Assembly: GCA_945892755.1 (NCBI GenBank)
Contig: CAMDDO010000004.1
Span: 3,099 to 67,098 of the forward strand
Source: Rhizobium sp. Q54
GTDB taxonomy: Bacteria > Pseudomonadota > Alphaproteobacteria > UBA828
Direction: 5' to 3'
DNA length: 64,000 nucleotides
The stretch's first letter is position 1; every line of letters starts with the position of its first letter. The notes beneath the pieces are model-generated. The model worked only from the letters and a program-made list of their open reading frames with translations. It did no database searches and had not been told where the DNA came from. Positions 21,070 through 42,547 of this stretch are shown in pieces. The translations under genes were made by a program, and so were the position numbers.

Positions 21070-21195
21070 TCGGAGAAGCCTGTTGGGCGGAAATCATAGG
21101 TTTTGCCGGGCCCTGACGCCAGTGTGCTCGTGCCGCCGACGCGACCTAGACCGGGCTCCGTGTTCGTTTTCTGAACATTGCGCTTGACTAGCCTC

Positions 21196-24077: not shown

Positions 24078-24079
24078 GC

Positions 24080-25903
24080 ATGTGCGGGATTGCCGGCGTA
24101 ATCGCCGCCGCGCCGCCCGATCCGGCGCGCGTGCGCGCGGCGCTTGCGACCATGAAACAGCGCGGACCCGATGCCGAGGGCGTGCATCAGGGCCGGCTCG
24201 GCAATCATGCCGTCACGCTCTTGCACACGCGACTCTCGATCATCGATCTCGATCCGCGCGCCAATCAGCCCTTCGTGCGCGATGGGCTCGCGCTTAGCTA
24301 TAATGGCGAGCTCTATAATTACCTCGAAGTGCGCGCCGCGCTCGAAGCGCTTGGCCATCGCTTCACCACGCAATCCGATACCGAGGTGCTCATCGAGGCC
24401 TATCGCGCCTGGGGCGAGGCGTGTCTCAACCGCTTCGAGGGCATGTGGGCGTTCGCGCTGCTCGACGAGGCGAAGGGAAGGCTGTTCCTGAGCCGCGACC
24501 GCTTCGGCGAGAAGCCGCTTTATACGATGCGGAAGGATGGCGCGCTTTATTTCGCCTCCGAAGTGAAGGCGCTGGCCGCGCTCGCCGGCTCATGGCCCGC
24601 GCCCGATCGCGCGCAAATCAGGCGCTATCTGGTGAACGGCTATAAGGCGCTCTACAAACAACCGGCGAGCTGGTTCGAGGGCGTGCGCGAGCTGCCGGCG
24701 GCGCATTATGCCGCGATCACCGAGCCGCTCAGGGTCGAGCCCAAGCGCTATTGGAGGCTCAGCTATTCGCCCGAGGCCATGTCGCTCGCCGACGCGCGGG
24801 ATGGCGCGCGCGAGCGCCTGTTCGAGGCGGTGAAACTGCGTCTTCGCGCCGACGTGCCGATCGCGTTTTGTCTGTCCGGCGGCATCGATTCGAGCGCGCT
24901 CGCCGGCATCGCGGCCAAGCATTTCGGGCAAGAGCTGCACGCCTTCTCGGTGGTCGATTCCGATCCGCGCTATGACGAGCGCGACAACATGACCGCGACG
25001 GTCGATTTTCTGGGCTGCGCGCATCATGTCGCTCATACCTCGACCGAAGGCTTCTTCGACCGGCTTGACCGCCAGATCGCCTATCACGACGCCCCGGTCG
25101 CCACCATCACCTATTACATGCACGCCTTCCTTTCCGAGGCGATTCACCAAGCGGGCTTCAAGGTGGCGATCTCGGGCACCGCGGCCGATGAGATGTTCAC
25201 CGGCTACTACGACCATTATGGCTTCTGGCTCGCCGAGATGAGCGCGCGGCGGGATTTTCCCGCGCTGCTCGACGATTGGCGCGGGAGTTACGGCCGATAT
25301 GTCCGAAACCCGGTGCTGCAAGACCCGCTCGTCTTCCAAAACAACCCCGATGAGCGCGGTCATATTTTTCTCAATGCCGAATTGTTCACCGGTTTTCTGG
25401 CCGCGCCGTTCGACGAGGGCTTCGAGGAAGCGCCCTATGGCGACAACCTCTTGCGCAAGCGCATGCTGAACGAGCTGTTCCACGAGTGCGTGCCGGTCAT
25501 CCTGCACGAGGACGATCTGAATTCGATGATGGTCTCGGTCGAGAATCGCTCGCCCTATCTCGATCGCGCGCTGACCGAGTTTCTGTTCCGCGTGCCGGCC
25601 GAACACCTGATCAAGGATGGCTATGTCAAGTTCCTGCTGCGCGCGGCGGTCGACGGGCTGGTGCCGGATTCGGTCCGGCTCGACAAGAGGAAGCGCGGCT
25701 TCAACGCCTCGATCGATTCATTGATCGACAGAAAAAACCCGGACACGCGCGCGCGGCTGCTCGATGGCAGCCCGATTTTCGATCTGGTGCGGCGCGAGGC
25801 GGTCGAACGCTTTCTTGACGCCGATATGACCGATAACTCGTTCTCGAAATTCCTGTTCAGCTTCGTCTCGGCCAAGATCTTCATGGACCGGCACGCGGCC
25901 TGA
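24080..25903 (+). CDS. asparagine-synthetase-family (AsnB-like) glutamine amidotransferase
   Basis: MCGIAG N-terminal nucleophile and SGGIDSS PP-loop. Typical of PseA-like amidotransferases in nonulosonate loci. Confidence 0.85.
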   Translation: MCGIAGVIAAAPPDPARVRAALATMKQRGPDAEGVHQGRLGNHAVTLLHTRLSIIDLDPRANQPFVRDGLALSYNGELYNYLEVRAALEALGHRFTTQSDTEVLIEAYRAWGEACLNRFEGMWAFALLDEAKGRLFLSRDRFGEKPLYTMRKDGALYFASEVKALAALAGSWPAPDRAQIRRYLVNGYKALYKQPASWFEGVRELPAAHYAAITEPLRVEPKRYWRLSYSPEAMSLADARDGARERLFEAVKLRLRADVPIAFCLSGGIDSSALAGIAAKHFGQELHAFSVVDSDPRYDERDNMTATVDFLGCAHHVAHTSTEGFFDRLDRQIAYHDAPVATITYYMHAFLSEAIHQAGFKVAISGTAADEMFTGYYDHYGFWLAEMSARRDFPALLDDWRGSYGRYVRNPVLQDPLVFQNNPDERGHIFLNAELFTGFLAAPFDEGFEEAPYGDNLLRKRMLNELFHECVPVILHEDDLNSMMVSVENRSPYLDRALTEFLFRVPAEHLIKDGYVKFLLRAAVDGLVPDSVRLDKRKRGFNASIDSLIDRKNPDTRARLLDGSPIFDLVRREAVERFLDADMTDNSFSKFLFSFVSAKIFMDRHAA

Positions 25904-27027
25904 TGCGTTATTGCACGCGCTGCATTCTGCCCGACACGCGGCCCGGCATCACGCTCGATGGTTCAGGCGTGTGTTCGGCCTGTCGCGGCCATGACGACAA
26001 GGAACATCGCATCGATTGGGCGGCGCGGCGCGCGGCGTTCGAGCGCCTCGTGGCGGAGACCAAGGCGCACAACGCCGCCTATGACTGCGTGGTGCCGGTC
26101 TCGGGCGGCAAGGATAGCTGGTATCAAGTGATCACCGCGCGGCGCCACGGCCTGAAGCCGCTCGGCGTGACTTGGAAGCCGCCCGGGCGAACTCCACTCG
26201 GGCAAAAAAATCTCGATGCCATGATCGCCGCGCTCGGCATCGATCATATCGACTACACGATCTCGCCCGACATCGAGCGGCGTTTCATGAAAGCCGCGTT
26301 CGAGCGCAAGGGCGCCTCGGCGATCCCGATGCACATGGCGCTGTTCGCGATTCCAATTCGGCTCGCCACGCAATTCGGTATTCCGCTCATGGTCTGGGGC
26401 GAAAACCCGCAACTCGAATTCGGCGGCGCGGAGGCTGATCGGCTCGCCACTGATCTCGACCTCGACTGGGTGCGCCGCCATGGCGTGACCAACGGCACCG
26501 CGGTCGATGATTGGATCGGCGCCGAAGGCCTCGGCGTCGAGGATCTCGCCGCCTTTCGTCTGCCAGCGGCCGATTCGTTCAAATCGGGCGTGCGCTCGAT
26601 CTTCCTCGGGTCTTATTTCAAATGGAGCAGCTTCGAAAACGCGCGCCTCGCCGCCGAGCACGGCTTCACGCTGGGCGACGCGCCGGCGACGGGGGCGTGG
26701 AACTTCGCCGATCTCGACGACCGCTTCATCTCGATCCATCACTTTCTCAAGTGGCACAAATTCGGCCTGACGCGCGCCTTCGATAATCTCTCCGTGCAAA
26801 TCCGCTTCGGCCGGACGACGCGCGACGAGGCGATCAAGACGCTGAGGTCTCTCGGCGTGCAGGAGCCGCGCGAGGATATCGAGGCGTTTTGCGAATTCGT
26901 GCGGCAACCGCTTCCTTGGTTCCATGAGATCGCCGAGCGCCACCGCAATCCGGCGATCTGGCAAAAGCGCGGCAATAATTGGGTGATCGACGGCTTCCTG
27001 ATCGAGGATTGGGACTGGTCGCAATGA
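25903..27027 (+). CDS. N-acetyl sugar amidotransferase (WbuX/LPS-biosynthesis PP-loop family)
   Basis: N-terminal CxxC...CxxC zinc ribbon (CTRCILPDT...GVCSAC) and PP-loop VPVSGGKDSWYQ. Confidence 0.75.
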   Translation: MRYCTRCILPDTRPGITLDGSGVCSACRGHDDKEHRIDWAARRAAFERLVAETKAHNAAYDCVVPVSGGKDSWYQVITARRHGLKPLGVTWKPPGRTPLGQKNLDAMIAALGIDHIDYTISPDIERRFMKAAFERKGASAIPMHMALFAIPIRLATQFGIPLMVWGENPQLEFGGAEADRLATDLDLDWVRRHGVTNGTAVDDWIGAEGLGVEDLAAFRLPAADSFKSGVRSIFLGSYFKWSSFENARLAAEHGFTLGDAPATGAWNFADLDDRFISIHHFLKWHKFGLTRAFDNLSVQIRFGRTTRDEAIKTLRSLGVQEPREDIEAFCEFVRQPLPWFHEIAERHRNPAIWQKRGNNWVIDGFLIEDWDWSQ

Positions 27028-27821
27028 GTGAGGCCTGCCCGATGTGCGACGGCGCGGCGCTTGCGCTCCTTCATCGGTTCGACGCGCGGCCCGAGGGCGA
27101 AAACGATTTCGGCTTCATGCCCTATCGGCGCGAATTATGGCGCTGCGGGGCCTGCGGGCATGTCATCAACCGGCATGATTTTCCGCTCGATCGGCTCTAT
27201 GCCGCGAGCTATGTCGACGCGGTCTATGGCGCGCGCATGGAACAGGATTTCGCGCGCATCATGGCGTTGCCGCCCGAGCGCTCCGACAATCGCCAGCGCC
27301 TGAATCGCGTCGAGGCCTATGTCGCGGCGCGCGGCCCCGGCCTGCCGCGCCGCGCGCTCGATGTCGGCGCGGGCCTCGGCGTGTTTCCCGCCGCGCTCGT
27401 CGAAGCGGGATGGGACTGCCTCGCGATCGACCCCGACCCGCGCGCGACCGCCCATATCGAGACGCATACGCGCGCCACGGCGCGCTGCGGCGATTTCGCC
27501 GCTTTGCCGCCCGAGCGGCGCTTCGCGCTGGTGAGTTTCAACAAGGTGCTCGAGCATGTGCGCCCGATGGTCACGATGCTCGCGCGCTCGAAGGAGTGGC
27601 TGTTGCCCAGGGGTCTCGTCTATGTCGAATTGCCCGATGGCGAAGCCGCGCTCGAGGCCGGCCCCGCGCGCGAGGAATTCTTCGTCGAGCATTTTTGCGC
27701 CTTCAGCCTGGCGTCCTTCGCGCTGCTCGCCTTGAAGGCGGGCTTTCGCGCCGAGCGCGTGGAGCGCATTCGCGAGCCGAGCGGCAAATACACGCTCTTT
27801 GGGTTTCTGTCGGCGGCATGA
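27024..27821 (+). CDS. class I SAM-dependent methyltransferase with N-terminal Cys4 zinc ribbon
   Basis: CPMCDG...CGACGH, then a LDVGAGLGVF glycine-rich SAM motif. Confidence 0.7.
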   Translation: MSEACPMCDGAALALLHRFDARPEGENDFGFMPYRRELWRCGACGHVINRHDFPLDRLYAASYVDAVYGARMEQDFARIMALPPERSDNRQRLNRVEAYVAARGPGLPRRALDVGAGLGVFPAALVEAGWDCLAIDPDPRATAHIETHTRATARCGDFAALPPERRFALVSFNKVLEHVRPMVTMLARSKEWLLPRGLVYVELPDGEAALEAGPAREEFFVEHFCAFSLASFALLALKAGFRAERVERIREPSGKYTLFGFLSAA

Positions 27822-28570
27822 GCGAAGCGGCACGCAAGGACGTGGAAAGCGCCGTGTTGGAGCCGCAGCCCTTCGAGGCGGAATTTCTGGGCGGGCCGTG
27901 CTTTCGGCTCGTCACGTCAGCCGAGGCAGGCGCCAAGGAGATTGGACGCGCCATGACCGGCTTGATGGCGCGGCCGGAAATTCGTGGCGCGAAACTGATC
28001 ACGGCGCGCGTGCCGGGGCCCGATGCGGGCACGATCGGCGCGCTGGAGCGCGCGGGCTTTCGGCGCATCGAAACATTGATCACCTTCGAGCGCGCGCTGA
28101 ACGACTCCGATACGCCGGAGGCGGGCGATGTCGTGCGCCAGGCGCGACCCGACGATGCCGCCGCCTGCATCGAGATCGGCCGCTCGGCGTTTCATACCGA
28201 CCGCTTCCACGCCGATCCGCGCATCCCGAAGGCGGCGGCCGATGCGCTCAAGGCGCGCTGGGTCGCCAATGATCTGAACGGCCGGGCCGATGCCGCGTTC
28301 GTCGCTCTGGCCGAGGGGCGCCCGGCCGGTTTCAACCTGTGCCTGAAGCGCCAATCGGTCGCCGTGATCGATTTGATCGCCGTGGACCAGGCGCGGCGCG
28401 GGCGGGGCCTCGGCGCCGCCTTGGTCGCGGCGAGTCTCGCTCATTATGCGAAGAGCGCGCGCACCATGCAGGTTGGCACCCAGGCCAATAACGCCGCCTC
28501 GATCGCGCTTTATCGGCGCTTCGGCTTCGCGCCCATCGCCGAAGCCGTGACCTTGCATTGGATGGCATGA
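27818..28570 (+). CDS. GNAT-family N-acetyltransferase (WecD/PseH-like)
   Basis: C-terminal GNAT core VDQARRGRGLGAALV...ALYRRFGF. Confidence 0.7.
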   Translation: MSEAARKDVESAVLEPQPFEAEFLGGPCFRLVTSAEAGAKEIGRAMTGLMARPEIRGAKLITARVPGPDAGTIGALERAGFRRIETLITFERALNDSDTPEAGDVVRQARPDDAAACIEIGRSAFHTDRFHADPRIPKAAADALKARWVANDLNGRADAAFVALAEGRPAGFNLCLKRQSVAVIDLIAVDQARRGRGLGAALVAASLAHYAKSARTMQVGTQANNAASIALYRRFGFAPIAEAVTLHWMA

Positions 28571-29571
28571 TGCGCGCGCTCAAGGCCGGCGTGATCGGGC
28601 TCGGGGTCGGCGAGCGCCATGGCGCCGCCTATCAGGCCGAGCCCGGCTGCGAGCTGGTCGCGCTCTGCGATCTCGATGAGAAGCGCCTGAAAGAGGTCGG
28701 CGACCGGCTCGGCGTCGCGGAACGCCACACCGATTGGCGCCGCATCACCGAGCATCCCGAGCTCGATGTCATCTCGATCTGCTCCTATGACGATTGCCAT
28801 GCCGAGCAAGCGGTTTCCGCGTTTCGTCATGGCAAGCACGTCATGGTCGAAAAGCCGGCGGCGCTGCACCGCGCCGAGGCCGAGGCGATGCTGCGCGCCA
28901 TGACCGACAGCAAACGTCTGATCACTTCGAATTTGATCCTGCGCAAGAGCCCGCGCTTCATCGCCGTGCGCGACATGATTCGTGACGGGCGTTTCGGTGA
29001 AATCTTCTATCTCGAAGGCGATTACATCCACGAGATTCTGTGGAAGATCGTCACGGGCTGGCGCGGCCGCATGCCGTTCTACTGCGTTACCTATGGCGGC
29101 GGCATTCATTTGATCGACCTGATGCGCTGGCTGATGGGGCAGGAGATCGTCGAGGTTTCCGGCATGGGTAACAAGCTGGCCTCGCGCGGCGCCGACTTTC
29201 CCTATCCTGACACCATCGTCAATCTCATGCGCTTCGAGGGCGGCGCGCTGGCCAAGAGCCTCACCACCTTCGCGCCGCAACGCCCGCAAATTCACGCGCT
29301 CTCGATCTATGGCTCGCGCGCGACCTTCGTCAACGACATGCCCAACGCCAAATTGTTCGGCGGCAGCAAGCCGGAAGACGAAACCCCGATGCGCGCGCCC
29401 TATCCGGCGATCGAGAAGGGCGCGCTGCTGCCCGATTTTCTCGCCGCAATCCGCGAGGGGCGCGAGCCCGAAATCGGCGCGCGAGATATTTTTCGCGTCA
29501 TGGATGTGTGCTTCGCGGCCTGGGAATCGGTCGAGGCCGGGCACACGGTCAAGGTGAGCTATCTGATCTGA
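28567..29571 (+). CDS. Gfo/Idh/MocA-family NAD(P)-dependent oxidoreductase
   Basis: KAGVIGLGVGERHGAAY Rossmann start and EKP motif (VMVEKPAA). Confidence 0.8.
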   Translation: MMRALKAGVIGLGVGERHGAAYQAEPGCELVALCDLDEKRLKEVGDRLGVAERHTDWRRITEHPELDVISICSYDDCHAEQAVSAFRHGKHVMVEKPAALHRAEAEAMLRAMTDSKRLITSNLILRKSPRFIAVRDMIRDGRFGEIFYLEGDYIHEILWKIVTGWRGRMPFYCVTYGGGIHLIDLMRWLMGQEIVEVSGMGNKLASRGADFPYPDTIVNLMRFEGGALAKSLTTFAPQRPQIHALSIYGSRATFVNDMPNAKLFGGSKPEDETPMRAPYPAIEKGALLPDFLAAIREGREPEIGARDIFRVMDVCFAAWESVEAGHTVKVSYLI

Positions 29572-30731
29572 TGAGCGAGCCCAGGATCATTCCGTTCGGC
29601 CGGCCGATGATCGGCGCGGAGGAACAGGCGGCGGTCGCGCGCGTGCTCGCCGGCCCGCAGCTCGTGCACGGGCCGGCCGCCCATGATTTCGAGACCCGCT
29701 TCGCCGCCCGGGCCGGCGTCGCGCACGCCGTTTCGGTGTCATCCTGCACGGCGGGACTGCATCTTGCGTTGCATGTTCATGGCATCGGGCCGGGCGATGA
29801 GGTGATCGTGCCGGCCATGACCCATGTCGCGACCGCGCACGCGGTCGAATATTGCCGGGCGAGGCCGGTCTTCGTCGATGTCGATCCCACGAGCGGTAAT
29901 CTCGATCTCGAGGCGCTCGAGGCGGCGATCGGACCGAACACGCGCGCCATCATGGTGGTGCATTTTCTCGGCCTGCCGCCCGACATGACGCGGCTGCGCG
30001 CGATCGCGAAAAAGCACGATTTGCTCGTGGTCGAGGATGCCGCGCTCGCGCTTGATGCGAGCTATGATGGCGTCAAGGCCGGCGGACTTGGCGATGTGGC
30101 GAGTTTCTCGTTTTACCCGACCAAGCACATGACGACCTCCGAAGGCGGCATGGTGACGACCAACGATGCCGAAATCGCCCGGCGTGTCGCCGCGATGAAG
30201 GCGTTCGGCTATGACAAGACGCTCGACGAGCGCACCCGCCCCGGCATCTATGACGTGACCGCGCTCGGCTACAACTACCGCATGAGCGAGGCCCACGCGG
30301 CGATCGGGCTGGCGCAATTGGCGAAGCTCGATGGCTTTCAGGCCGCGCGCGCCGCGAACTTCAAGGCGCTCAGCGACGGCCTCGCCGATTGCGCCGAGCT
30401 CATGGTGTTCGCGCCCGCGCAAGGCAAGGGGCGCTCGTCGCATTATTGCCTGAACGCGATGCTGCCGCGCGATGGCGGGATCGCGCGCGACGATGTGGTG
30501 GCGCAGCTAAAAGCCAAGGGCATCGGCACCAGCGTGCATTATCCGAGCGCGGTGCCGCTATTCGCCTATTATCGCGAGAAATATGGCTACCGCGCGGGTC
30601 AGTTTCCGGTCGCCGAATGGCTCGCCCGGGCGACCATCTCGCTGCCGGTCGGACCGCATCTCGAACCGGGCGATCCGGCGCGCATCGCCAATTCGCTCAA
30701 GGCCGCGGTCGCGGTCGCCGAGGCGCGCTAG
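29571..30731 (+). CDS. DegT/DnrJ/EryC1/StrS-family PLP sugar aminotransferase
   Basis: SFSFYPTKHMTTSEGG with PLP lysine; fold-type I sugar aminotransferase. Confidence 0.85.
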   Translation: MSEPRIIPFGRPMIGAEEQAAVARVLAGPQLVHGPAAHDFETRFAARAGVAHAVSVSSCTAGLHLALHVHGIGPGDEVIVPAMTHVATAHAVEYCRARPVFVDVDPTSGNLDLEALEAAIGPNTRAIMVVHFLGLPPDMTRLRAIAKKHDLLVVEDAALALDASYDGVKAGGLGDVASFSFYPTKHMTTSEGGMVTTNDAEIARRVAAMKAFGYDKTLDERTRPGIYDVTALGYNYRMSEAHAAIGLAQLAKLDGFQAARAANFKALSDGLADCAELMVFAPAQGKGRSSHYCLNAMLPRDGGIARDDVVAQLKAKGIGTSVHYPSAVPLFAYYREKYGYRAGQFPVAEWLARATISLPVGPHLEPGDPARIANSLKAAVAVAEAR

Positions 30732-30738
30732 GCGCGCC

Positions 30739-31845
30739 ATGAGACAGGAGACAAGAACCGCCGTGATCGATCCGTCCTATCAAGCCGCGCTCGACCGCCT
30801 GAAGCCGCATCGCATTCTGTTGGTCGGCGGGGCCGGCTTCATCGGACACAATCTCGCGCTCGAACTCGGCCGCCATGGCCAGAGCGTCATGGTCGCCGAC
30901 AATCTGATGGTGAACAATCTGGTGCAGAACGTGTCGTCGGCGCAAATGGCGCCGGTGCAACGCAGGCTCTATCAGAATTTCCTGCTCGACCGATTCATCT
31001 TGATGCGCGACGGCGGCGTCAATTTTCGCAATGTCGATGCGCGCAATTCGATTGAGATCGCGCGCGTGTTCGACGAGTTTCAGCCGACCAAGATTGTCCA
31101 TCTGGCTGCCATCGCGAGCGCGGTGGAGGCACGGAAGGATCCCGGCCTGGCTTTCGATCTTCAGCTCGTCACGTTTAGGAACGTGCTCGAGCAAGCGCGA
31201 CTGAGCCATGGCCGGGTCAACCAGGTCATGTTCATGAGTTCGAGCACGGTCTATGGCGATTTCGAGGGGGCGGAAGTTGACGAGATGACCCGGCCGCAGC
31301 CTGAGGGCATTTATGCCAATGGCAAGTATATGGGTGAACGATTAGCCCGCACCTATGCGACGCAACACAATGTTCCTTCGATCATTGTGCGACCTTCGGC
31401 GCTTTATGGCGAGCGCTGTGTGAGCCGTCGGGTCTCACAAGTCTTTGTCGAGAATGCATTGTCGGGTAAGCCCTTGCTGCTCGAAGGCGGCGGCGATGGC
31501 CGTCTCGACTTCACTTACATCAAGGACCTTGTCGATGGGATGGTGCGCGGCTTGGCTATTGATTGCCAAGCCGGGTACACCAACACCTACAATCTGACTT
31601 ATGGCAACGCTCGCACGGTGGCGGACCTGGCCGCGGTGGTAAAAAGCGTGGTGCCGGAAGCTAAGCTCGAGGAACGGCCGCGCGCCGCCGATAAGCCGAT
31701 TCGCGGCACGCTTTCGACCCAACGCGCCGCGCAAGAACTCGGCTTCCGCGCGGCTTGGCCGCTCGAAACCGGATACCGTCGATACTGTGAATGGTACGTC
31801 GCTGAGTGGCGCAAGGCGGAGGCTCAGTGCCGCTCGGCCTCGTAG
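30739..31845 (+). CDS. NAD-dependent epimerase/dehydratase (extended SDR)
   Basis: ILLVGGAGFIGHNL Rossmann motif, YxxxK region (YANGKY). Visibly lower GC than neighbours. Confidence 0.8.
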   Translation: MRQETRTAVIDPSYQAALDRLKPHRILLVGGAGFIGHNLALELGRHGQSVMVADNLMVNNLVQNVSSAQMAPVQRRLYQNFLLDRFILMRDGGVNFRNVDARNSIEIARVFDEFQPTKIVHLAAIASAVEARKDPGLAFDLQLVTFRNVLEQARLSHGRVNQVMFMSSSTVYGDFEGAEVDEMTRPQPEGIYANGKYMGERLARTYATQHNVPSIIVRPSALYGERCVSRRVSQVFVENALSGKPLLLEGGGDGRLDFTYIKDLVDGMVRGLAIDCQAGYTNTYNLTYGNARTVADLAAVVKSVVPEAKLEERPRAADKPIRGTLSTQRAAQELGFRAAWPLETGYRRYCEWYVAEWRKAEAQCRSAS

Positions 31846-32552
31846 TTTTCGCGCGCATGGATTCGCGCCGGCTGCCTGGCAAGGCGTTGTGCGATATCGC
31901 CGGTCGGCCATTATTGGGACGCGTGCTCGACCGCGTACGCGCGGTTCACTCCGCGCCGCCGATTGTCGTGGCCACTTCGGCGCGCGCGGTCGACGATCCG
32001 ATCGCGCGCTTCGCCAAGGCGGAGGGTGTGGGATTGTTCAGGGGTGATGCCGCGGATGTGCTCGGCCGCGCTCTGGCCTGCGCGGATCATTTCGCATTTT
32101 CGGCGATCATCCGCATCTCAGGCGATAGTCCTTTCATAGACCCCGGCCTGATCAAGCAGTGCGTCACCCGCTTCGAGGCCGTGCCGGAGATCGATTTGGT
32201 GACCAATGCCATGCCCAAGACATTCGCACCCGGATTGAGCGTCGAGGTGATCGCGACCGAGGCTCTGCGCCGCGCTTCAAGAGAGGCCACCGCAACCGAT
32301 GAGCGGGAGCATGTGACGCTATATTTGTATCGGCACGCGGCACGGTTTCGAATCGAGAATATCGCGGCGCCCGATGAGCGTTACCTTGGCATCACGCTCA
32401 CCATCGATGAACCGGGCGATCTTGACCGCGCGACCTGGATCGCCCAGGCGCTCGGGCCACGCGCCGCGAGCGCGCCGCTCGACGAGGTGGTCGCCCTCGC
32501 GCGCCGCTTCGGTGCCGAACGCTCGCCGGAGGTCGTGCATGGACGTGCGTGA
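31806..32552 (+). CDS. acylneuraminate cytidylyltransferase-family protein (SpsF/PseF-like), copy 1
   Basis: VVFARMDSRRLPGKAL motif of the CTP_transf_3 family. An alternative GTG start lies at 31825. Confidence 0.75.
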   Translation: MAQGGGSVPLGLVVFARMDSRRLPGKALCDIAGRPLLGRVLDRVRAVHSAPPIVVATSARAVDDPIARFAKAEGVGLFRGDAADVLGRALACADHFAFSAIIRISGDSPFIDPGLIKQCVTRFEAVPEIDLVTNAMPKTFAPGLSVEVIATEALRRASREATATDEREHVTLYLYRHAARFRIENIAAPDERYLGITLTIDEPGDLDRATWIAQALGPRAASAPLDEVVALARRFGAERSPEVVHGRA

Positions 32553-32916
32553 GCGAAAACCACCCCGTCGGTTTGCGGTCGGTCCGAAGGGGGCACAGGC
32601 GACGCTCGCCCATTGTGCCGACGTCGCGCTCGAGCCTGACGAGATGGTCAGCTTCGTTACCGCGAGCGGCACCGAGTTCGACGTGGTGCGCAAGGCCTGG
32701 GGCTATTACGCGACGCCCTCGCTCAATGCGCGACTGCCCGAGAAGGGCCTGCGGCCGGCCCTGGTCGGCAGCACGACGCGGCGTTATGTATTGCTGGCCG
32801 AACCCGCCAGGCTCGATGAATTCCACGCCTATCTGAAGAGTCAGCACATGACGGTCATCGCCTGGCTCGATGTCGACGAGGTGGTGTCGGTGAAATCGGC
32901 CAGTGAGCATTCCTGA
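32539..32916 (+). CDS. small (125-aa) uncharacterised protein, tandem paralog A
   Basis: GGAGG RBS 7 nt upstream, 14-nt overlap with the upstream gene. No known motif. Confidence 0.5.
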   Translation: MDVRERKPPRRFAVGPKGAQATLAHCADVALEPDEMVSFVTASGTEFDVVRKAWGYYATPSLNARLPEKGLRPALVGSTTRRYVLLAEPARLDEFHAYLKSQHMTVIAWLDVDEVVSVKSASEHS

Positions 32917-32940
32917 CATGAGCCGGCATGGAGATCGTGG

Positions 32941-33297
32941 ATGAAGGCCAAGCTGAGAAGCGAGCCGCGCCGCTTCACGCCGCTTGTGGGCCTCGAGATC
33001 CGCGACTGCGGCGCTATCGAGCTCGGTATCGACGAGCAGATCACGGTTACGACCGAGACGGGCATCGGCAACGACATCGTCCGCAAGGAGTGGGGCTTCT
33101 ACCTCTCGAACTCGCTGAACGCCAATCTCACCGCCAAGGGTTTCAAGACCGCGCTCGTCGTGAGCCATGCCAGCACCCCGCCGCGCACTTATCTCAACCT
33201 CGTCGAGCGCGACAAGATGGCGGCATTCGAGGCGTATCTGCGCGCGTTCAACGCGCGTGTCGCCTGTTGGCTCGACGAATGGCCGACCTCTGGTTGA
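32941..33297 (+). CDS. small (118-aa) uncharacterised protein, tandem paralog B
   Basis: Aligns colinearly with paralog A (VRKxWGxYxxxSLNAxLxxKG..xALV.....RxYxxLxE...xxxFxAYL.....xxxWLD). Confidence 0.5.
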   Translation: MKAKLRSEPRRFTPLVGLEIRDCGAIELGIDEQITVTTETGIGNDIVRKEWGFYLSNSLNANLTAKGFKTALVVSHASTPPRTYLNLVERDKMAAFEAYLRAFNARVACWLDEWPTSG

Positions 33298-33311
33298 GTT
33301 TGTAGAGAGAC

Positions 33312-35147
33312 ATGACACGCATCGCCGGAATCGCAAGCGGCGCCCCGCCAGACATCGCGGCTGCCATGGTATCGCGTATGACGGTGGGGAGTACCGCATG
33401 CGTGAGCCTATGTGTTGCACAGATCGGGCTGGCCTCCAGCGATGCCAAGAATGGCTGGTTCGATGACGGCCACGTCGTCGTTGCTTTCGATGGGCTGGTC
33501 TATAACCGTGACGAGTTCGACGCGCTTGAAACGATGTCCGATGCCGCCGTGCTCGCCGCGCTCTACCGGCGCTACGGCATGCCCGGCGCGCTTCACCGAC
33601 TGAACGCGGATTTTGCCTGTGCGCTCTTCGATCGCGCGCAACGGAGGCTCTACCTGGCGCGCGATCGCTTCGGCGTGAAGCCGATGTACTACGTTGCGAG
33701 CGGCGCATTGGTCGCGTTCGCGTCGCGGCTTGCGGGGCTGTTTTGCCTGCCGGGCGTCGATCTTGCCCCCCGTCCGGACTATCTGGCCACGATGGCGGCC
33801 GGACACTATCGCTTTTTCGACAATCCGCCCGAGGCCACGCCCTATCGCGGACTCGCCCAATTGGCCCCCGGCATGGTGCTCACCATCGCCAATGGCTCGG
33901 CGTCATTGTCGCGTTGGTACGCGCTTGAGGATCAAGGTGACGATCCGCGTTCGTTCCAAGATTTGACGGAAGCCTATCGGGTGTTGTTTTTCGACTCGGT
34001 CAAGCGTCGCCTGGCGCGCGTCGATCGGCCTGCCTTCTCGCTTTCGGGCGGTCTCGATTCGAGCTCGGTCGCGACCAGTGCGGCGCTTATCTCGGGGACG
34101 CCGTCACGGGCCTATTCGACTGTCTATGATGGCGCCGCCTATGACGAGACGGCCGAGATTCGCGATGTTCTTGAAGGCGGCAGGATCGAGTGGCAACCAA
34201 TCGAACTCGGCACCTTCGATCTCTTTGCCGAGGTCGCACGCCTTACGGCGCGGCACGATCAGCCGCTCTCGACCGTCACCTGGCTGGCGCACGCGGTGCT
34301 CTGCGAAAAAATCAAAGCGTCGGGTCATGGCGGGATCTTGGGTGGTCTCGGTGGCGATGAGCAACACGCCGGCGAGTATGATTATTTTTTCTATTTCTTC
34401 GCTGATTTGAAGGCCGCCGGTGATGAGGCGCGACTTGCCCACGAAATCGCGTGTTGGCAGCGCCATCACGATCACCCGGTCTGGCGCAAGACGCCGGGGG
34501 TGGCCGCGATGAAGATGGCACGGTTGACCGATTGCTCCGTGCCCGGCCGGGTGATCGCGGACGTCGATTTGCTGGCACGCTATCAAGAAGCGCTGTCGCC
34601 GGATGCGCGCTCGGCGGTCGCGCCGACGCTTGAAAACCCATTCCAGAGCTACCTCAAGAGCCACGCCTACAACGAAATCTATCGCGAGACGATGCCCTGT
34701 TGCTTACGCGCCTCGGAGCGCAACACCGAAGCACTCGGGCTCACCGACGCATTTCCGTTTTTCGATCACCGACTGGTCGAGCTCGCCTTTCGTGTGCCAA
34801 GTGTGCTCAAGATCAGGGACGGCGTGACGAAGCAACTCTTGCGCACCGCGATGAAGGGGACGCTACCGGAGAAAACGCGCACGCGGATCGCCAAGACAGG
34901 GTGGAATGCGCCGCTCCATCAGTGGCTGGCGGCGCGCTATAAGGCGCCCCTGCTCGATCTGGTGCGCAGCCGCGCCTTCCGCGAGCGCGGACTCTATCGG
35001 GCGAACGTCGTCGAACATTTGATCGAGGAGCATGCCACGATCGTTGAAAGCGGTGCGCCGCGCGACAACCACATGATGTTCTTGTGGCAGTTGATCGGCC
35101 TCGAGCTTTGGCTGAACGGCTTGGCCCAGGCCAGAAAGGCAGCCTAG
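33312..35147 (+). CDS. AsnB-like amidotransferase paralog lacking the N-terminal Cys nucleophile
   Basis: Starts MTRIAGI instead of MCGIAG; the PP-loop LSGGLDSS is retained. Confidence 0.8.
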   Translation: MTRIAGIASGAPPDIAAAMVSRMTVGSTACVSLCVAQIGLASSDAKNGWFDDGHVVVAFDGLVYNRDEFDALETMSDAAVLAALYRRYGMPGALHRLNADFACALFDRAQRRLYLARDRFGVKPMYYVASGALVAFASRLAGLFCLPGVDLAPRPDYLATMAAGHYRFFDNPPEATPYRGLAQLAPGMVLTIANGSASLSRWYALEDQGDDPRSFQDLTEAYRVLFFDSVKRRLARVDRPAFSLSGGLDSSSVATSAALISGTPSRAYSTVYDGAAYDETAEIRDVLEGGRIEWQPIELGTFDLFAEVARLTARHDQPLSTVTWLAHAVLCEKIKASGHGGILGGLGGDEQHAGEYDYFFYFFADLKAAGDEARLAHEIACWQRHHDHPVWRKTPGVAAMKMARLTDCSVPGRVIADVDLLARYQEALSPDARSAVAPTLENPFQSYLKSHAYNEIYRETMPCCLRASERNTEALGLTDAFPFFDHRLVELAFRVPSVLKIRDGVTKQLLRTAMKGTLPEKTRTRIAKTGWNAPLHQWLAARYKAPLLDLVRSRAFRERGLYRANVVEHLIEEHATIVESGAPRDNHMMFLWQLIGLELWLNGLAQARKAA

Positions 35148-35151
35148 CGCG

Positions 35152-36702
35152 ATGAGCCAGGAATCGCGGCGCGACCGACCGGTGGTCATCATCCAGATGA
35201 TGAACCAATATGCCGATCTCCTGAGCGCGCTCGCCAAGGCACTGAGCGAGAATTACGGCATCGGCTCGATCCTGATCCATCGCGGGCCGGGCGATCTGCC
35301 CAACCCGAAGCGCTATCATTTTGACAAGACGGCGTTCGATGAGTTGCTCGACATCGAATCTATCCTCGCGCCACGCGCCATTGAAAATTTACCCCGCACC
35401 GCCGCGCTCGCGGCCGAGATCGCGACGGTCGAGCAGAGGCTTTCGATCAAATTGCTTGAAGCGGTGCGCGCGGATCGCCATCTCGGTCGCGGCTTTGTCG
35501 TCGGCGCGGTCTATGCGCGTTCGCGCTATGGTATTTCAGTCGATTTCGATCAGAGCCTCGATATCGCGCTCCGCCTCGCATGTCGATTCGAAGAGCTTTA
35601 TCGCTCCCGCGAGGTCGTGGCGGTGATCGGCGCGATATCTTCGATCCATGGCAATCTGATGGTCAGCGTGGCCGAGGGCCTCGGCCTGCCGGTGCGGCAG
35701 CCCAATTTGACGAACAACACGCGGCTTTATTGGGCGGTCGATCGCCATTTCCGGCCGCTTGATTTCGAGGCCTCGCTGGCGCGCGCGCTGCAACAAGGCA
35801 ATGCGCGCGCCGAACTCGGCACCACCGCGCGCGCGGCCGGCGTGATCGCGAGCCTGCCTCGGCAAACCACCTGGCGCTATCTCGCGCGAGCCATCTATCG
35901 CGCGACGCGGCGCGAACTCGGCCATCGGCTCAAGCGGCGCGATCAGGTCTATGGCAAATATCTCTGGGGCGATCTGCTGAAGACGATCATCGGCACATGG
36001 CGGCTGCGTCGTGCCGCGCGCAAGGCGACGCCCGTATTGCCGACGCTGCCCGCCGGCCTGCCCTATGTGTTTCTGCCGTTTTCGGTCGAGCCCGAATCGA
36101 CCCTGATGGCCGAATCGCCGACCTGCGACAATCAACTTGCCTTGATCGATTGGGTCGCCAAGGCGATGCCGAGCGGCTGGCGCCTCCTCGTCAAGGAACA
36201 CCCGGCCTTCACCGCGCCCCGCCCCGCGGGCTTCTGGGAGCGGGTGCGCGCCTACCCGAACGTGGTCGTGTTAGCGCCGCTCGAGCGCGGCGAAGATGCC
36301 ATGCGCGGCGCCAAGGCGCTCGCGATCATCCGCAGTTCGCTCGGCTTCCAGGCCGCCGCGCTCGGCATTCCGGTCGTCACGCCGCATCCGGCCTATTATG
36401 GCGCGAGCCTGCCGCACGTCTTCATCGTCGAATCCTATCGCGCGATGGAAGCGGCCTTGCGCAAGATCGCGCGCGACGAGCTGCCGCCGATCGCGCTGCG
36501 AATCCAAGCGTTTCAGGCCTTGCACACTGTCTTCGACGAGGCGAGCCTGCCGATCGCCGATCCGAACCTGATTCGCGGCGTGGCCGGCGGGCGGGAGATC
36601 GACCCGGGCGAGGTGGGCCTAATCGTCCGATCGCTCGCCGAGAGTCTGAACCTCGGGTCCGGCGAAGTGGCGCGCGCGCTTCTGCTAAAGGGTGTCAGAT
36701 GA
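35152..36702 (+). CDS. capsule-polysaccharide-biosynthesis (KpsC/KpsS/LpsZ/RkpZ-like) putative glycosyltransferase
   Basis: LLVKEHP motif and surrounding GT-B-like C-terminal half resemble the Capsule_synth family. Assignment is from memory of the motif. Confidence 0.5.
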   Translation: MSQESRRDRPVVIIQMMNQYADLLSALAKALSENYGIGSILIHRGPGDLPNPKRYHFDKTAFDELLDIESILAPRAIENLPRTAALAAEIATVEQRLSIKLLEAVRADRHLGRGFVVGAVYARSRYGISVDFDQSLDIALRLACRFEELYRSREVVAVIGAISSIHGNLMVSVAEGLGLPVRQPNLTNNTRLYWAVDRHFRPLDFEASLARALQQGNARAELGTTARAAGVIASLPRQTTWRYLARAIYRATRRELGHRLKRRDQVYGKYLWGDLLKTIIGTWRLRRAARKATPVLPTLPAGLPYVFLPFSVEPESTLMAESPTCDNQLALIDWVAKAMPSGWRLLVKEHPAFTAPRPAGFWERVRAYPNVVVLAPLERGEDAMRGAKALAIIRSSLGFQAAALGIPVVTPHPAYYGASLPHVFIVESYRAMEAALRKIARDELPPIALRIQAFQALHTVFDEASLPIADPNLIRGVAGGREIDPGEVGLIVRSLAESLNLGSGEVARALLLKGVR

Positions 36703-36745
36703 TTCCTTTCGCGCCAATCGATGCGTCCCTCCAAGAGATTACGTC

Positions 36746-37555
36746 GTGAGAACCGCCATCGTCGTCGAATCTCGACTGAGCTCGCGCCGCTTGCCGGGGA
36801 AGGCGCTGCGCCCGATCGCCGGCGAGCCCATGTTGGGCGTGCTGCTTGATCGGCTCAAGCGTTCGCGCCTTGCCGACGTGATCTGCGTCGCCACCTCGAC
36901 CGAGCCCAATGACGCCGCCATCGCGGCGCTCGCGCGCGCCAAGGGCGTCGAGGCCTTTCTCGGCTCTCTTGACGACGTCCTTGGTCGCGTGTTGGGCGCG
37001 CTTGATTTTGTGGCCGCCGATTTGATCGTCGAGATCACAGGCGATTGCCCGCTCGTGGACCCGCTCCTCATCGATCAGGCCATTGCGCGTTACCTCGCGG
37101 GGGGCGCCGACTACCTCGCCAACATGCTCAATCGGCTGACCTACCCGATCGGCATGGATGTGCAAATTTATTCCCGCGCGCTGCTCGCCAGTGTCGATCT
37201 TCTGTGCCTCGAGCCGGACATGCGCGTCGACGTGACGCCCTATATTTATCGTCATGGCGAACGGTTCCGCTTGCTCAATATTCTGGCGCCGCCGCCCCTG
37301 AGCCGGCCGAATTACCGGTTGTGTGTCGATGTCAAGGAAGATTTCGAGTTGATCGAAGCGGTGCACCACGCGCTCGGCCGTCGTGGAACGGCCTACGGTC
37401 TCGCCGAGATCGTCGCCTTCCTCGATGCAAACCCTGCGCTCGCACGTCACAATCTGAACCAGCCCGACGCCTTCGCCTGTCCACGCACTGTCGGGCCGCT
37501 GCGCGAGGAAGAAATGCCACTTCCGGCCGACGATCCGAGGCTCGCCGCCGCATGA
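36746..37555 (+). CDS. acylneuraminate cytidylyltransferase-family protein (SpsF/PseF-like), copy 2
   Basis: AIVVESRLSSRRLPGKAL, colinear with copy 1. GTG start at 36746. Confidence 0.75.
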   Translation: MRTAIVVESRLSSRRLPGKALRPIAGEPMLGVLLDRLKRSRLADVICVATSTEPNDAAIAALARAKGVEAFLGSLDDVLGRVLGALDFVAADLIVEITGDCPLVDPLLIDQAIARYLAGGADYLANMLNRLTYPIGMDVQIYSRALLASVDLLCLEPDMRVDVTPYIYRHGERFRLLNILAPPPLSRPNYRLCVDVKEDFELIEAVHHALGRRGTAYGLAEIVAFLDANPALARHNLNQPDAFACPRTVGPLREEEMPLPADDPRLAAA

Positions 37556-38535
37556 CGCGCGCGCTGATCATTGGCTGTGGCCAAATCGCCGGTGGCTTTA
37601 ATGAGAGCGACGAGACCAGCACTTTGAGCCATGTCGTGGCGCTGCGGCACGCGGGGGCCGACGTGATCGGGTGCATGGATCATGATCCCACCCGCGCGCG
37701 CCGCTTTGCCGAGCGCTGGAACATTGGCGAACACGGCACAGTGCTTGCTGCGATGCTGGAGCGCCTGGCGCCCGACCTTGTGGTCGATTGCACGCCGCCC
37801 AGCGTACGCCTCAGCATTGTCTCGGCTGCGCTCGTCGCGCCGAGCGTGCGCGCACTCTTGATCGAGAAGCCGTTGGCGAGCAGTGCCGCCGAGGCGGTCG
37901 CGATGCGTAGCCGTGTTCGCTCGGCCAACAAACCAGTGATCGTCGCCTATCAACGTGCTTTCGACGCGTGCTATGTCGCGGCCGAGACGATGGTGCGGCA
38001 GGGCGGACTCGGGCGATTGGTTCGTATTACTGCGATCGCTTATGGCGGCGCGCTCGCCAATATGTCGCATCTGCTCGAGCGCACGTTCGCGATGGCCGGT
38101 TGGCCACGCGAGGCCGCCCTAATTGGTGCACCGATTCTCGAAGACGCCAACGATCCCGGTCTTAGCTTCCGCGCCAGCTTCGCTGATGAGGTAGAGGGTG
38201 TCTTTCTCGCCGTGCCGCGCGCCGGGCCCGCCGTGATTGAACTCGAACTAATCGGCAGCGAGGGCCGGCTGCGCATCCTCGATTCCGAGCGGCGCGTCGA
38301 ATTGAGCCGTGCGTTGCCCTCGCGCGATGGCGTGGCGCGGCTTGTCGAGTCCGTAGCACCCACACCCCTGCCGGCCCCTGATTGGGAGGCGATTCGTCAC
38401 GTCGCCAAGGCCGCAATTGCCGCGTCCAGCGGAGCGATGCTCGATGTCGCCATGATCGAGCGCGCGACCGAGGCCGTGATCTTGATCGACAGCTTAAGAC
38501 ATACCGGCGTTTTCGCACGGAAGAACGCGGCGTGA
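37552..38535 (+). CDS. Gfo/Idh/MocA-family oxidoreductase, copy 2
   Basis: LIIGCGQIAGG Rossmann start, EKP motif (LLIEKPLA). Confidence 0.7.
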   Translation: MTRALIIGCGQIAGGFNESDETSTLSHVVALRHAGADVIGCMDHDPTRARRFAERWNIGEHGTVLAAMLERLAPDLVVDCTPPSVRLSIVSAALVAPSVRALLIEKPLASSAAEAVAMRSRVRSANKPVIVAYQRAFDACYVAAETMVRQGGLGRLVRITAIAYGGALANMSHLLERTFAMAGWPREAALIGAPILEDANDPGLSFRASFADEVEGVFLAVPRAGPAVIELELIGSEGRLRILDSERRVELSRALPSRDGVARLVESVAPTPLPAPDWEAIRHVAKAAIAASSGAMLDVAMIERATEAVILIDSLRHTGVFARKNAA

Positions 38536-39800
38536 TGCGAAACACCACACTTGCCATCAATGGTGGCGCGCCGACCATAGATCGATCGTTCCCGCCCTAT
38601 CGAACAATCGGTGAGGCCGAAGAGCGCGCGGCGCAACGCGTGCTACGCTCTGGCGTGTTGAGCGCGTTCTATGGTTCGATCGGCGATAATTTTCTCGGTG
38701 GCCCTGAGGTTAAACGCTTCGAGGCGGCCTGGGCGGCGCATTTTCAAGTGCGCCATGCGGTCTCGATGAACAGCGCGACGAGCGGGTTGATTGCGGCCGT
38801 GCAGGCACTCGGGCTTGGGCCGGGCGATGAGATGATCGTGCCGCCTTTTAGCATGATCGCGTCGGCCACGGCGGCGACGATCAACGGCGCGACACCGGTC
38901 TTCGTCGATATCCGCCCTGATATTTTCACGCTTGATCCAGCCATGGTCGAAGCCGCCATCACGCCACGCACCAAGGCGATCATGGTGGTCAATCTATTTG
39001 GCCAGCCGGCGGATCTCGATGCGCTGATCGCACTGGCCCGGCCGCGCGGCATCCGCGTGATCGAGGACAACGCGCAAGCCCCCGGCGCGCTCTATCACGG
39101 CCGTCAGGCTGGCACGATCGCCGATATCGGCATTTTCTCGCTCAATTGCCACAAAACGATCCAGACCGGCGAAGGGGGCTTTGCCTGCACCAATGACGAT
39201 GACCTGGCGTTGCGGCTTCAACTGATTCGCAATCACGGCGAGGCGGTGGTACGCGAGCTTGGCTATCGCAACGCGCCGGAGCGGATCACCGGATATAACT
39301 TCCGTCTGGGCGAGATCGAAGCCGCGATTGGCTATGAGCAATTGGCGAAGCTCGATGCCCTCACGCGGCCGCGCCAGCGTCTTGCCGCCTTCTTTGCCGA
39401 GCGCCTCGCGGCTCTGCCAGGCCTTTCCGTCCCCAAGGTCGAAACCGGGCGCAGTCACGTCTATTACGTCCATGCGCTGAAGCTTGATTCAAGGCGCGCG
39501 GGTTTCTCGCGGCGTTCCTTGGTTCGCGCGCTCGGCGCGGAGGGGCTCGAGGCCTATGAGGGCTATTGCAAGCCGCTCTATCTCGAACCGTTATTTTCGA
39601 ACAACGCGCGCAATCACGCCGGCCTTTGTCCGGTCACCGAACGGCTCCATGAGAGCGAATTGTTCTTTCATCCCTGGCTCTATGAGGCGATCGAGCCAAA
39701 GGCCGAATTGATCGTGCGAGCGTTCGAGAAAGTTTGGGATAATGCGACCGCGCTCGCCGCGCTTGATGATGATGGACGACGTGCTGTTCGCCGCCGCTGA
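38535..39800 (+). CDS. DegT/DnrJ/EryC1-family PLP sugar aminotransferase, copy 2
   Basis: FSLNCHKTIQTGEGG PLP-lysine region. Confidence 0.85.
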   Translation: MRNTTLAINGGAPTIDRSFPPYRTIGEAEERAAQRVLRSGVLSAFYGSIGDNFLGGPEVKRFEAAWAAHFQVRHAVSMNSATSGLIAAVQALGLGPGDEMIVPPFSMIASATAATINGATPVFVDIRPDIFTLDPAMVEAAITPRTKAIMVVNLFGQPADLDALIALARPRGIRVIEDNAQAPGALYHGRQAGTIADIGIFSLNCHKTIQTGEGGFACTNDDDLALRLQLIRNHGEAVVRELGYRNAPERITGYNFRLGEIEAAIGYEQLAKLDALTRPRQRLAAFFAERLAALPGLSVPKVETGRSHVYYVHALKLDSRRAGFSRRSLVRALGAEGLEAYEGYCKPLYLEPLFSNNARNHAGLCPVTERLHESELFFHPWLYEAIEPKAELIVRAFEKVWDNATALAALDDDGRRAVRRR

Positions 39801-40872
39801 ACCCGGTGGCGCCAATGTGCTGGCGAGCTTCCACGCCGGCGCGAAGCGTCGCTATCGGGCGTGTCCGGCATGGGCAACGCCGGGCGCAAGCCCCGTGTTC
39901 GAGGCCGCGGGCCTCAAAGTCGAGCGGCTCGAGGCCTTGCCGTCGGTCGCGGAGGTCGAACGGCGCTGGGCCGCGATCGAGAAGCCGGGCGCGGTTGTCA
40001 CGGGCACCTCGCTCGATGGCACGCTCGAAGCCACGCTCTGGCGCCTCGCCGCGCGCGATGGCGTTCCCGCGCTTGCCTGGATCGATCAATGGATGAACCT
40101 CGATCATCGATTTCGAAAGGGCCGCCCGGCCTGGGTCGCCGCGCTCGACGCGGCACAGCGCGATGCGCTGATCGCAATAGGCTTTGAGCATGACCGCGTC
40201 ATTTTGGGCGGCCATCCGCATCTTCACGCCATGATGTCGTGCCCGCTCGACGCCGCGCCTCATACCGATCGAGAAGGCATACAAACCGTCCTCTTTGTGA
40301 GCGAGTCCTATACCGAGGACTATCGCCTCGGCAGACTAAGCCCGCTTGGCTATGACGAACATGAGGTGTTCGACATCGTGGCCCATGGGATTGAGGCCGC
40401 CAAGCGCGCAGACCCAGACCGGCGCATCGATCTCGTGGTCAAATTTCATCCGCTCGAAGGCGAGCCGCGTCGGTTCATCGAACGCCTGGAATCAAGGCCG
40501 TGGCCCAAGAATGTTACCGCGCGTTGGTTGCCGGGCCCGGCATCGGGGCGTGAGGCCGCGGCGGCGGCTGATCTCGTCATCGGAATGAGTTCGATCTTGT
40601 TGCTTGAGGCGCTCCTAATGGAGCGACCTGTGCTCAGCCTGACGCCGGGGCATGAGGGCGAGGATCCCTTCATCGCGAGCCGGCTTGGCGCGGTGCATGC
40701 CGCTCATGAACGCGAGGCCGGGATTGTTCTTGTGCGCCGCGCCCTTGTCGAACCGGGCTTTCGTGCCGCGGCGCTTGAGCGCCAAAAGCGCTTCCTCGAT
40801 GCTATGCCCGAAGATGGCTCGGCCCTGGTCGTTGCTTGGCTCGATCGCGCGGGAACCCATGCCGGCGGCTGA
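39766..40872 (+). CDS. GT-B-like protein with K.HP motif (KpsC/KpsS/TagF-like), copy 2
   Basis: DLVVKFHPLEG then IGMSSILLLEALLMERPVL, resembling the C-terminal half of Capsule_synth/TagF transferases. Low certainty. Confidence 0.4.
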   Translation: MMMDDVLFAAAEPGGANVLASFHAGAKRRYRACPAWATPGASPVFEAAGLKVERLEALPSVAEVERRWAAIEKPGAVVTGTSLDGTLEATLWRLAARDGVPALAWIDQWMNLDHRFRKGRPAWVAALDAAQRDALIAIGFEHDRVILGGHPHLHAMMSCPLDAAPHTDREGIQTVLFVSESYTEDYRLGRLSPLGYDEHEVFDIVAHGIEAAKRADPDRRIDLVVKFHPLEGEPRRFIERLESRPWPKNVTARWLPGPASGREAAAAADLVIGMSSILLLEALLMERPVLSLTPGHEGEDPFIASRLGAVHAAHEREAGIVLVRRALVEPGFRAAALERQKRFLDAMPEDGSALVVAWLDRAGTHAGG

Positions 40873-41398
40873 ACCTATCGAAACCGCACGCTTGCGCCTC
40901 GAACCGTTCGGCGAGGCGCACTTGACCGAGATTTATGTTGCTTGGCTGAATGATCCCGAGATCGTGCGCTATAGCGAGCAACGCCATCGGCGGCACAATC
41001 TCGAAGGCAGTCGCCTTTGGGTTCAGTCCATGCGTGCGGGTGGCCATCCGCTCTGGGCGATCGAGGCAAAGAATCCACCGCTTGGTCATATCGGCAATAT
41101 TGCGGCCTATGTTGATGCGCCCAACCGGCTTGCGGATGTCAGCATTTTGATCGGCGCGCGCGCGGCGTGGGGCAAGGGCCTTGGCGCGGAGGCCTGGCGC
41201 GCGGCGTGTGACTGGCTGCTCGACTGCGCGCTCTTGCGTAAAGTCACCGGCGGTACCATGGCAGCCAATCGCGCGATGGTGCGCGTGATGGAACGCACCG
41301 GCATGCGCCCCGATGGCATGCGCGCCGGGCAATTTCTCCTCGATGGCGAAGCCGTCGATCTCGTGCACTATGCGCGCTTCGCGCCCAATCAAAGCTAG
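40859..41398 (+). CDS. GNAT-family acetyltransferase (RimL-like)
   Basis: RLEPFGEAHLTEIYVAWLNDPEIVRYSE N-terminus paralogous to the GNAT at 45741. GNAT core WGKGLGAEA. Confidence 0.7.
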   Translation: MPAAEPIETARLRLEPFGEAHLTEIYVAWLNDPEIVRYSEQRHRRHNLEGSRLWVQSMRAGGHPLWAIEAKNPPLGHIGNIAAYVDAPNRLADVSILIGARAAWGKGLGAEAWRAACDWLLDCALLRKVTGGTMAANRAMVRVMERTGMRPDGMRAGQFLLDGEAVDLVHYARFAPNQS

Positions 41399-42522: not shown

Positions 42523-42547
42523 GCGCATCGATGTCGAAGCAACTCCA

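Follow-up and report, generated by a model that had tools for sequence, protein, structure and literature searches.

Nonulosonic acids, pseudaminic and legionaminic acid among them, decorate flagella, capsules and lipopolysaccharide, and amidino and N-methyl decorations alter surface charge, phage recognition and host interaction. Among the closest described systems are PtmG (Cj1324) and PtmH (Cj1325/6) of Campylobacter and ORF28 and ORF8 of Legionella pneumophila, for which two papers describe a WbuX-type amidotransferase followed by a methyltransferase, the products being the 5-acetamidino and then the N-methyl-acetimidoyl form of legionaminic acid at the level of the cytidine monophosphate (CMP)-sugar (PMC3766260, PMC13306086). 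The same gene logic, with WbuX preceding a methyltransferase, is found in a 64,000-nt stretch of Rhizobium sp. Q54 DNA (contig CAMDDO010000004.1, forward-strand positions 3,099 to 67,098; hereafter the window) and in its relatives, the methyltransferases of the two kinds of system being likened here by gene order. The window cassette differs in that it includes a Gfo/Idh/MocA (GFO) oxidoreductase and a WecD-like GNAT, and no LegG or PseG. It also includes two small adjacent genes, A and B, whose products belong to a domain family of about 120 amino acids (aa) to which we give the working name FAM, and which is confidently predicted to have a fold of its own; targeted term searches of the same two papers returned no mention of a FAM-like component for the Campylobacter and Legionella systems.

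Gene A (FAM-A, plus strand, 32539-32916) encodes a 125-aa protein of the A subfamily that begins MDVRERKPPRRF..., and gene B (FAM-B, plus strand, 32941-33297) encodes a 118-aa protein of the B subfamily that begins MKAKLRSEPRRF.... The two are paralogues, and align colinearly in BLASTP with 38% identity across 117 columns, far beyond chance (E 4e-23). The ATG of A, at 32539, lies 14 nt within the preceding cytidylyltransferase gene, the stop codon of which is at 32550-32552, and is served by a GGAGG ribosome-binding site at 32528-32532 with a 6-nt spacer, while B begins after a gap of 24 nt with a GGAG of its own at 32930-32933 and a 7-nt spacer. Only 14 nt separate the end of B from the start of the next gene, AsnB2. 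An identical pair of 125-aa and 118-aa proteins has been predicted by independent gene callers on four public contigs. Furthermore, the ratio of nonsynonymous to synonymous substitution rates, calculated against the orthologous pair in the related locus L095 (84% amino-acid identity for A and 82% for B), is 0.10 for A and 0.16 for B, showing that both are real genes under purifying selection. The preliminary description of this DNA had read the two frames as real, colinear paralogues, the first with a good ribosome-binding site and coupled to the cytidylyltransferase, and all of this is borne out. A 436-aa antisense open reading frame (ORF) at 32398-33708 was rejected as an Arg-rich shadow ORF of 64% GC DNA, having failed a filter on codon-position composition (high GC at position 3, low GC at position 2).

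FAM was defined from a family alignment, A1, the profile of which matches both proteins over their full length (about 115-125 positions), with E values of 2.3e-49 for A and 1.9e-43 for B. Word-indexed searches returned 29 B-like and 123 A-like clusters, all labelled 'hypothetical' and devoid of any Pfam domain. When 1.84 billion representatives were searched exhaustively with the profile, 470 proteins were retrieved at E <= 1e-3, each standing for a cluster at 50% identity, and 344 at E <= 1e-10, and a scan of one genome per species placed relatives in 298 species. These belong to Alphaproteobacteria, Betaproteobacteria, Planctomycetes, Verrucomicrobia, Nitrospira, Actinobacteria (Solirubrobacterales), Binatia, Methylomirabilota, Omnitrophota, Bacteroidetes, cyanobacteria and one Methanomicrobiales metagenome-assembled genome (MAG). 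In the latter (locus L015, 3156-3638) FAM shares its contig with AsnB, a methyltransferase and WbuX, which suggests either a cross-domain horizontal transfer of the tailoring module or a binning artefact.

Conservation across the family is concentrated in a polar and aromatic patch that reads PRxF, DEQxT, D-x2-RKxWG[YF]Y-x3-SLN, E, F-x2-Y and WLD. Within it and around it, L31, D48, K52 and Y57 are invariant, and R10, F12, D34, E35, T38, G44, R51, W54, G55, S61, L62, N63, L66, G70, E88, F95, Y98 and W109-L-D111 are nearly so. Both A and B possess R10, F12, D34/E35, T38, D48, R51, K52, W54, G55, Y57, S61, L62, N63, E88, F95, Y98 and W109-L-D111, and the motif that had been noticed from the alignment of the two proteins with each other (VRKxWGxY...SLNA.L..KG...F.AYL...WLD) corresponds to the conserved core of the family. 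Neither protein matches any Pfam-A or NCBIfam model at the curated cut-off. The best Pfam score is that of HAD_SAK_2, for A only (14.5 bits versus a cut-off of 27.5), and the best NCBIfam score that of SflA, for B only (18.3 bits versus 25); both identities were rejected as chance, being below threshold, with no family recurring across 149 aligned members. Sequence and profile searches of the PDB with A and B returned nothing at E <= 10. An AlphaFold2 model of A, built from a 149-sequence alignment, has a predicted local distance difference test score (pLDDT) of 93.2 and a predicted template-modelling score (pTM) of 0.82, and consists of a five-stranded N-terminal beta-meander followed by a beta-beta-alpha-beta unit that has no neighbour among PDB folds. 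FAM is a previously unannotated domain family, confidently predicted to have its own alpha/beta fold, in keeping with the earlier remark that the pair matched no nameable family; no description of it was found in Pfam, NCBIfam, the PDB or a limited search of the literature, which for the cassette, as for the domain details of the methyltransferase TcaB9 discussed below, returned only general background.

In 80 fetched genome loci, most of which carry the cassette seen in the window, FAM proves to be a constant member of a compact nonulosonic-acid operon. It is accompanied by genes for WbuX (61 loci), a short-chain dehydrogenase/reductase (SDR; 60), a DegT aminotransferase (55), the amidotransferase AsnB1 (54; MCGIAG in at least 52 loci), a cytidylyltransferase (53), NeuB (52), a zinc-ribbon methyltransferase (51), a GFO oxidoreductase (50) and a GNAT (43). 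The commonest order is cytidylyltransferase-GFO-DegT-SDR-GNAT-NeuB-AsnB1-WbuX-FAM-methyltransferase, ten tightly packed genes with no other gene within. Immediately upstream of FAM lies most often WbuX (38/80) or the cytidylyltransferase (22/80), and immediately downstream, at 49/80 loci, a methyltransferase, which is of the zinc-ribbon type in 26, fused in 6 and of the Methyltransf_11 type in 17. The presence of NeuB identifies the operon as a nonulosonic-acid pathway, so that the 'sugar cluster' of the preliminary description was correct as far as it went, and can now be specified as a NeuB-type operon with amidotransferase and methyltransferase tailoring genes. The compact operon includes neither a NeuC/LegG-type nor a PseG-type gene, and no NeuC- or PseG-like gene was present in the cassette flanks scanned in two loci (L062 and L041), which encode further methyltransferases, sulfotransferases and DUF4910/DUF2172 proteins. 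Proteins of this last kind (DUF4910/DUF2172/HTH_47, M28-peptidase-like) recur beside FAM cassettes (L062, 12335-13609; L041, 14359-15717; L087, 10381-11781), often with extra methyltransferases and sulfotransferases, and in L087 directly after a B-type FAM.

The two proteins of the window are members of two old subfamilies. A displays the signature WGYYATPSLN and B the signature WGFYLSNSLN. The B type, marked by WGFYL[ST]NSLN and WLDeW, is a monophyletic group of 30 sequences, all of them stand-alone. What had been described as a tandem duplicated pair is thus adjacent and paralogous, as claimed, but not the product of a recent local duplication, which is ruled out because the B type is an old monophyletic subfamily present in other phyla. 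Likewise ruled out, by single-copy loci and by loci with B only, is an obligate tandem pair. FAM is single-copy in all 80 loci; A and B adjoin only in L089 and in the lineage of the window. Methyltransferase genes lie between them in L085 and L091, and L087 and L090 have B but no A. In the closest relatives (L001-L005 and L008) the order is cytidylyltransferase, FAM-A, a methyltransferase of the Methyltransf_11 type and AsnB2, and B in the window occupies the slot of this methyltransferase.

The neighbour of the B type is an AsnB homologue, directly upstream of which it is found in the window and in L085, L089, L090 and L091. In the window this is AsnB2 (33312-35147, plus strand), an asparagine-synthase homologue that starts MTRIAGI, with the glutaminase Cys2 replaced. 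Its score falls below the NCBIfam cut-off for asparagine synthase, and it also matches lasso-peptide and macrolactam cyclase models. Among Asn2-type genes of the fetched loci, the 18/26 with a detectable N-terminal motif have A, G, S or T at position 2 and never Cys, the motif being undetectable in the other 8/26; the AsnB homologues downstream of the B type thus never have the glutaminase nucleophile, and some are without the domain altogether. AsnB2 is probably an ATP-dependent ligase with a nucleophile other than glutamine-derived ammonia. The L087 locus, in which B occurs without A, has no NeuB within its 20 kb and carries, besides the DUF4910/DUF2172 gene, an Antibiotic_NAT gene.

The majority of FAM members stand alone and measure 110-130 aa. 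Among the best 150 representatives, however, about 30 are fusions of about 400 aa, in which an N-terminal FAM precedes a CxxC...CxxCGH zinc ribbon and a class I S-adenosylmethionine (SAM)-dependent methyltransferase, and a search with one such protein found at least 120 full-length clusters at 90% identity. The sole annotation of these proteins is 'class I SAM-dependent methyltransferase', their first 120 residues being without any Pfam domain, and a Pfam scan of the fusion protein finds only Methyltransf_23/11/12/25/31. The separate methyltransferase gene of the window (27024-27821, plus strand), itself of the class I zinc-ribbon type (CxxC...CxxCGH), shares 44% identity with the fusions over their C-terminal 270 aa (E 1e-74). 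Rarer architectures are six representatives with tandem FAM domains, in which the first copy is degenerate and not B-like and the second A-like, one representative in which FAM is followed by two methyltransferase domains, and one FAM-GNAT fusion within an otherwise canonical cassette; every fusion is of the A type. An AlphaFold2 model of a natural 399-aa fusion (120-sequence alignment; pLDDT 94.2, pTM 0.82) suggests that FAM is packed in a fixed position on the fused enzyme rather than flexibly tethered. Single-copy homologues fused to a larger enzyme, a search for which had been proposed in the preliminary description, therefore do exist, and they favour a subunit over a free-standing protein, lending support to the subunit-like half of the earlier suggestion of a 'new enzyme or chaperone-like subunit'.

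One possible role for FAM, which we put forward tentatively, is that of a substrate-recognition or docking subunit, A serving a methyltransferase and B an AsnB-like ligase. Such a subunit would be non-catalytic, and would recognise or present the substrate while docked on tailoring enzymes that have no sugar-nucleotide-binding domain of their own. The candidate partner of FAM-A is the zinc-ribbon methyltransferase at 27024-27821, which has only two domains (zinc ribbon and Rossmann). If the Campylobacter pair PtmG/PtmH and the Legionella pair ORF28/ORF8 are a guide, this enzyme probably adds the N-methyl to the acetamidino group installed by WbuX. The partner of FAM-B would be the glutaminase-dead AsnB homologue at 33312-35147. 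The common invariant aromatic and polar patch may bind a shared sugar-nucleotide moiety, with subfamily-specific residues fitting the different partners. We infer the docking, the binding of a substrate, the kind of sugar and the reaction; indirect support for a physical association of FAM with the methyltransferase or the AsnB-like ligase comes from the fusions and the compact model of one of them. Some observations weigh against this role. A catalytic site could equally well be built from the invariant D48, K52 and Y57 and the near-invariant R, S, N, E and W residues; a fusion indicates functional linkage and is not proof of a non-catalytic role; and the FAM-GNAT fusion is a misfit for a domain specific for the final CMP-sugar, as the GNAT is expected to act at an earlier step.

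It is conceivable, if rather unlikely, that FAM is a small enzyme with a new fold for an unassigned step of the pathway, for instance the release or isomerisation of a sugar precursor or an amidine step next to methylation, in which case the fusions would join consecutive enzymes. The lack of a NeuC/LegG-type or PseG-type gene in the compact operon and its immediate flanks is in favour of such an enzyme, as are the position of FAM and the GFO oxidoreductase as the only operon components without an assigned role, the conserved D, K, Y, R, S, N, E and W, and a fold that matches nothing known. Yet 120 aa is small for an enzyme, and the pathway may need no nucleotidase. Moreover, transferases of three unrelated types (the zinc-ribbon methyltransferase, the Methyltransf_11 type and GNAT) are found fused to FAM or next to it, and the B type pairs with AsnB-like ligases and is also present in L087, where no NeuB lies within the 20-kb locus, a pattern that a shared adaptor fits better than one fixed reaction. 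We consider it unlikely that FAM is a new catalytic fold for an unassigned reaction of an uncharacterised, widespread nonulosonic-acid pathway, the two window paralogues acting on two different intermediates.

That A and B form an obligate heterodimer, working together as one unit, for example as a scaffold or chaperone of the operon enzymes, would agree with their adjacency across only 24 nt and with the natural FAM-FAM tandems, where one copy is degenerate and two copies can thus act jointly. This arrangement is quite unlikely: the 80 loci have one copy only, B stands alone in L087 and L090, methyltransferase genes intervene in L085 and L091, the tandem fusions join a degenerate first copy to an A-like second one and include no B-like copy, and in close relatives a methyltransferase gene holds the position of B. 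WbuX enzymes (TIGR03573) usually come with HisH/HisF-like partners, and FAM sits between WbuX or AsnB and the next gene, so that one might picture it as an adaptor coupling the delivery of ammonia or amine among AsnB1, WbuX and AsnB2, in the manner of PurS, which acts as a dimer and has a duplicated fused form. This is highly improbable, as the strongest linkage of FAM and every common fusion are to methyltransferases and not to amidotransferases, and its fold has no similarity to PurS. Of these readings, the substrate-recognition or docking subunit is the one we prefer.

The NeuB/AsnB/WbuX/methyltransferase cassette of the window occupies 22905-33297, with all genes on the plus strand. A formyltransferase-like gene (21398-22153) precedes the NeuB-family nonulosonic acid synthase (22905-24077), which is followed by AsnB1 (24080-25903), a glutamine-dependent amidotransferase of the asparagine-synthase type with an intact N-terminal MCGIAG nucleophile, and by a WbuX-family N-acetyl sugar amidotransferase (25903-27027), a PP-loop enzyme for the conversion of acetamido to acetamidino groups that scores 306 bits against TIGR03573 (cut-off 203). 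The WbuX gene product has no Pfam-A match, and appears in Pfam-only tables as an unknown 370-aa protein, as it does in L085 and L089-L091. Beyond the methyltransferase gene lie those of the WecD-like GNAT (27878-28570), the GFO oxidoreductase (28558-29571), the DegT aminotransferase (29574-30731), the SDR (30736-31845) and the CTP_transf_3 cytidylyltransferase (31806-32552), the last being translationally coupled to FAM-A.

Downstream of AsnB2, a 516-aa protein (35152-36702) with only a sub-threshold match to Capsule_synth (KpsC/KpsS-like) in Pfam may be the transferase for the CMP-sugar; homologues of it are present in only 2/80 loci, besides the close relatives L081, L082 and L095. A second, lineage-specific module at 36692-41398, common only to L002, L005 and L089-like loci, comprises a second cytidylyltransferase, GFO and DegT, a 376-aa protein without a Pfam match (39742-40872) and an Acetyltransf_3 GNAT, and thus the cluster may produce a second, different activated sugar in addition to the first. 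Early steps of the pseudaminic-acid type are also encoded in the window, as indicated by a third DegT aminotransferase and a PseB-like Polysacc_synt_2 dehydratase at 41449-43771. Further along are two long ORFs without a Pfam match (43483-45744, 753 aa, and 47509-49284, 591 aa), a fusion of MaoC dehydratase and SDR between them (46271-47512), and a TylF-type O-methyltransferase after the second (49558-50232). Upstream of the sugar cluster, the minus strand at 12857-21093 carries an unrelated catabolic block of aldehyde dehydrogenase, an ABC transporter (two permeases, ATPase and binding protein), a LysR regulator and the alpha subunit of a Rieske ring-hydroxylating oxygenase.

FAM is a widespread domain with no entry in Pfam, NCBIfam or the PDB, and an integral, often fused part of a tailoring machinery; at least 120 database proteins labelled plainly as methyltransferases carry it as an unrecognised N-terminal domain, and the compact ten-gene operon in which it resides is defined here. 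If FAM is a substrate-recognition module, it would account for the selection of a CMP-sugar by methyltransferases with a bare two domains and by AsnB ligases with a dead glutaminase, and would provide a handle for engineering amidino and N-methyl decorations.

Small partner subunits are known from other systems, none of which FAM matches in fold: the zinc knuckle of Trm112, the alpha/beta sandwich of PurS and the winged helix of RRE (PqqD-like) domains are all distinct from it. PurS, a subunit of about 80 aa in the PurL/PurQ/PurS FGAM synthetase, an ATP-dependent amide-to-amidine amidotransferase, acts as a dimer, and in the large-type enzyme it is present as a duplicated fused domain, much as FAM occurs in pairs and in FAM-FAM fusions. 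TcaB9 (PDB 3NDI) is a zinc-domain C-3'-methyltransferase acting on dTDP (deoxythymidine diphosphate)-sugars, and the zinc-ribbon SAM methyltransferase fused to FAM resembles it, albeit with only 16% identity. The extra domain of TcaB9 (Methyltransf_14) is C-terminal and absent from the FAM system, neither FAM nor its fused methyltransferase matching PF08484, whereas FAM is N-terminal or a separate protein and its fold is unrelated. Trm112, a zinc-knuckle protein, is a small activator subunit of several class I methyltransferases that act on tRNA, rRNA and protein. It bears no fold or sequence similarity to FAM, but the proposed role of FAM is alike in that a small separate protein would dock on class I methyltransferases and have several partners, and the structural neighbours found for the enzyme part of the FAM fusion include Trm9 of the Trm9-Trm112 complex (5cm2). 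The operon, with its nonulosonic-acid synthesis and amidino and methyl tailoring, is of a known kind, and FAM is its new component.
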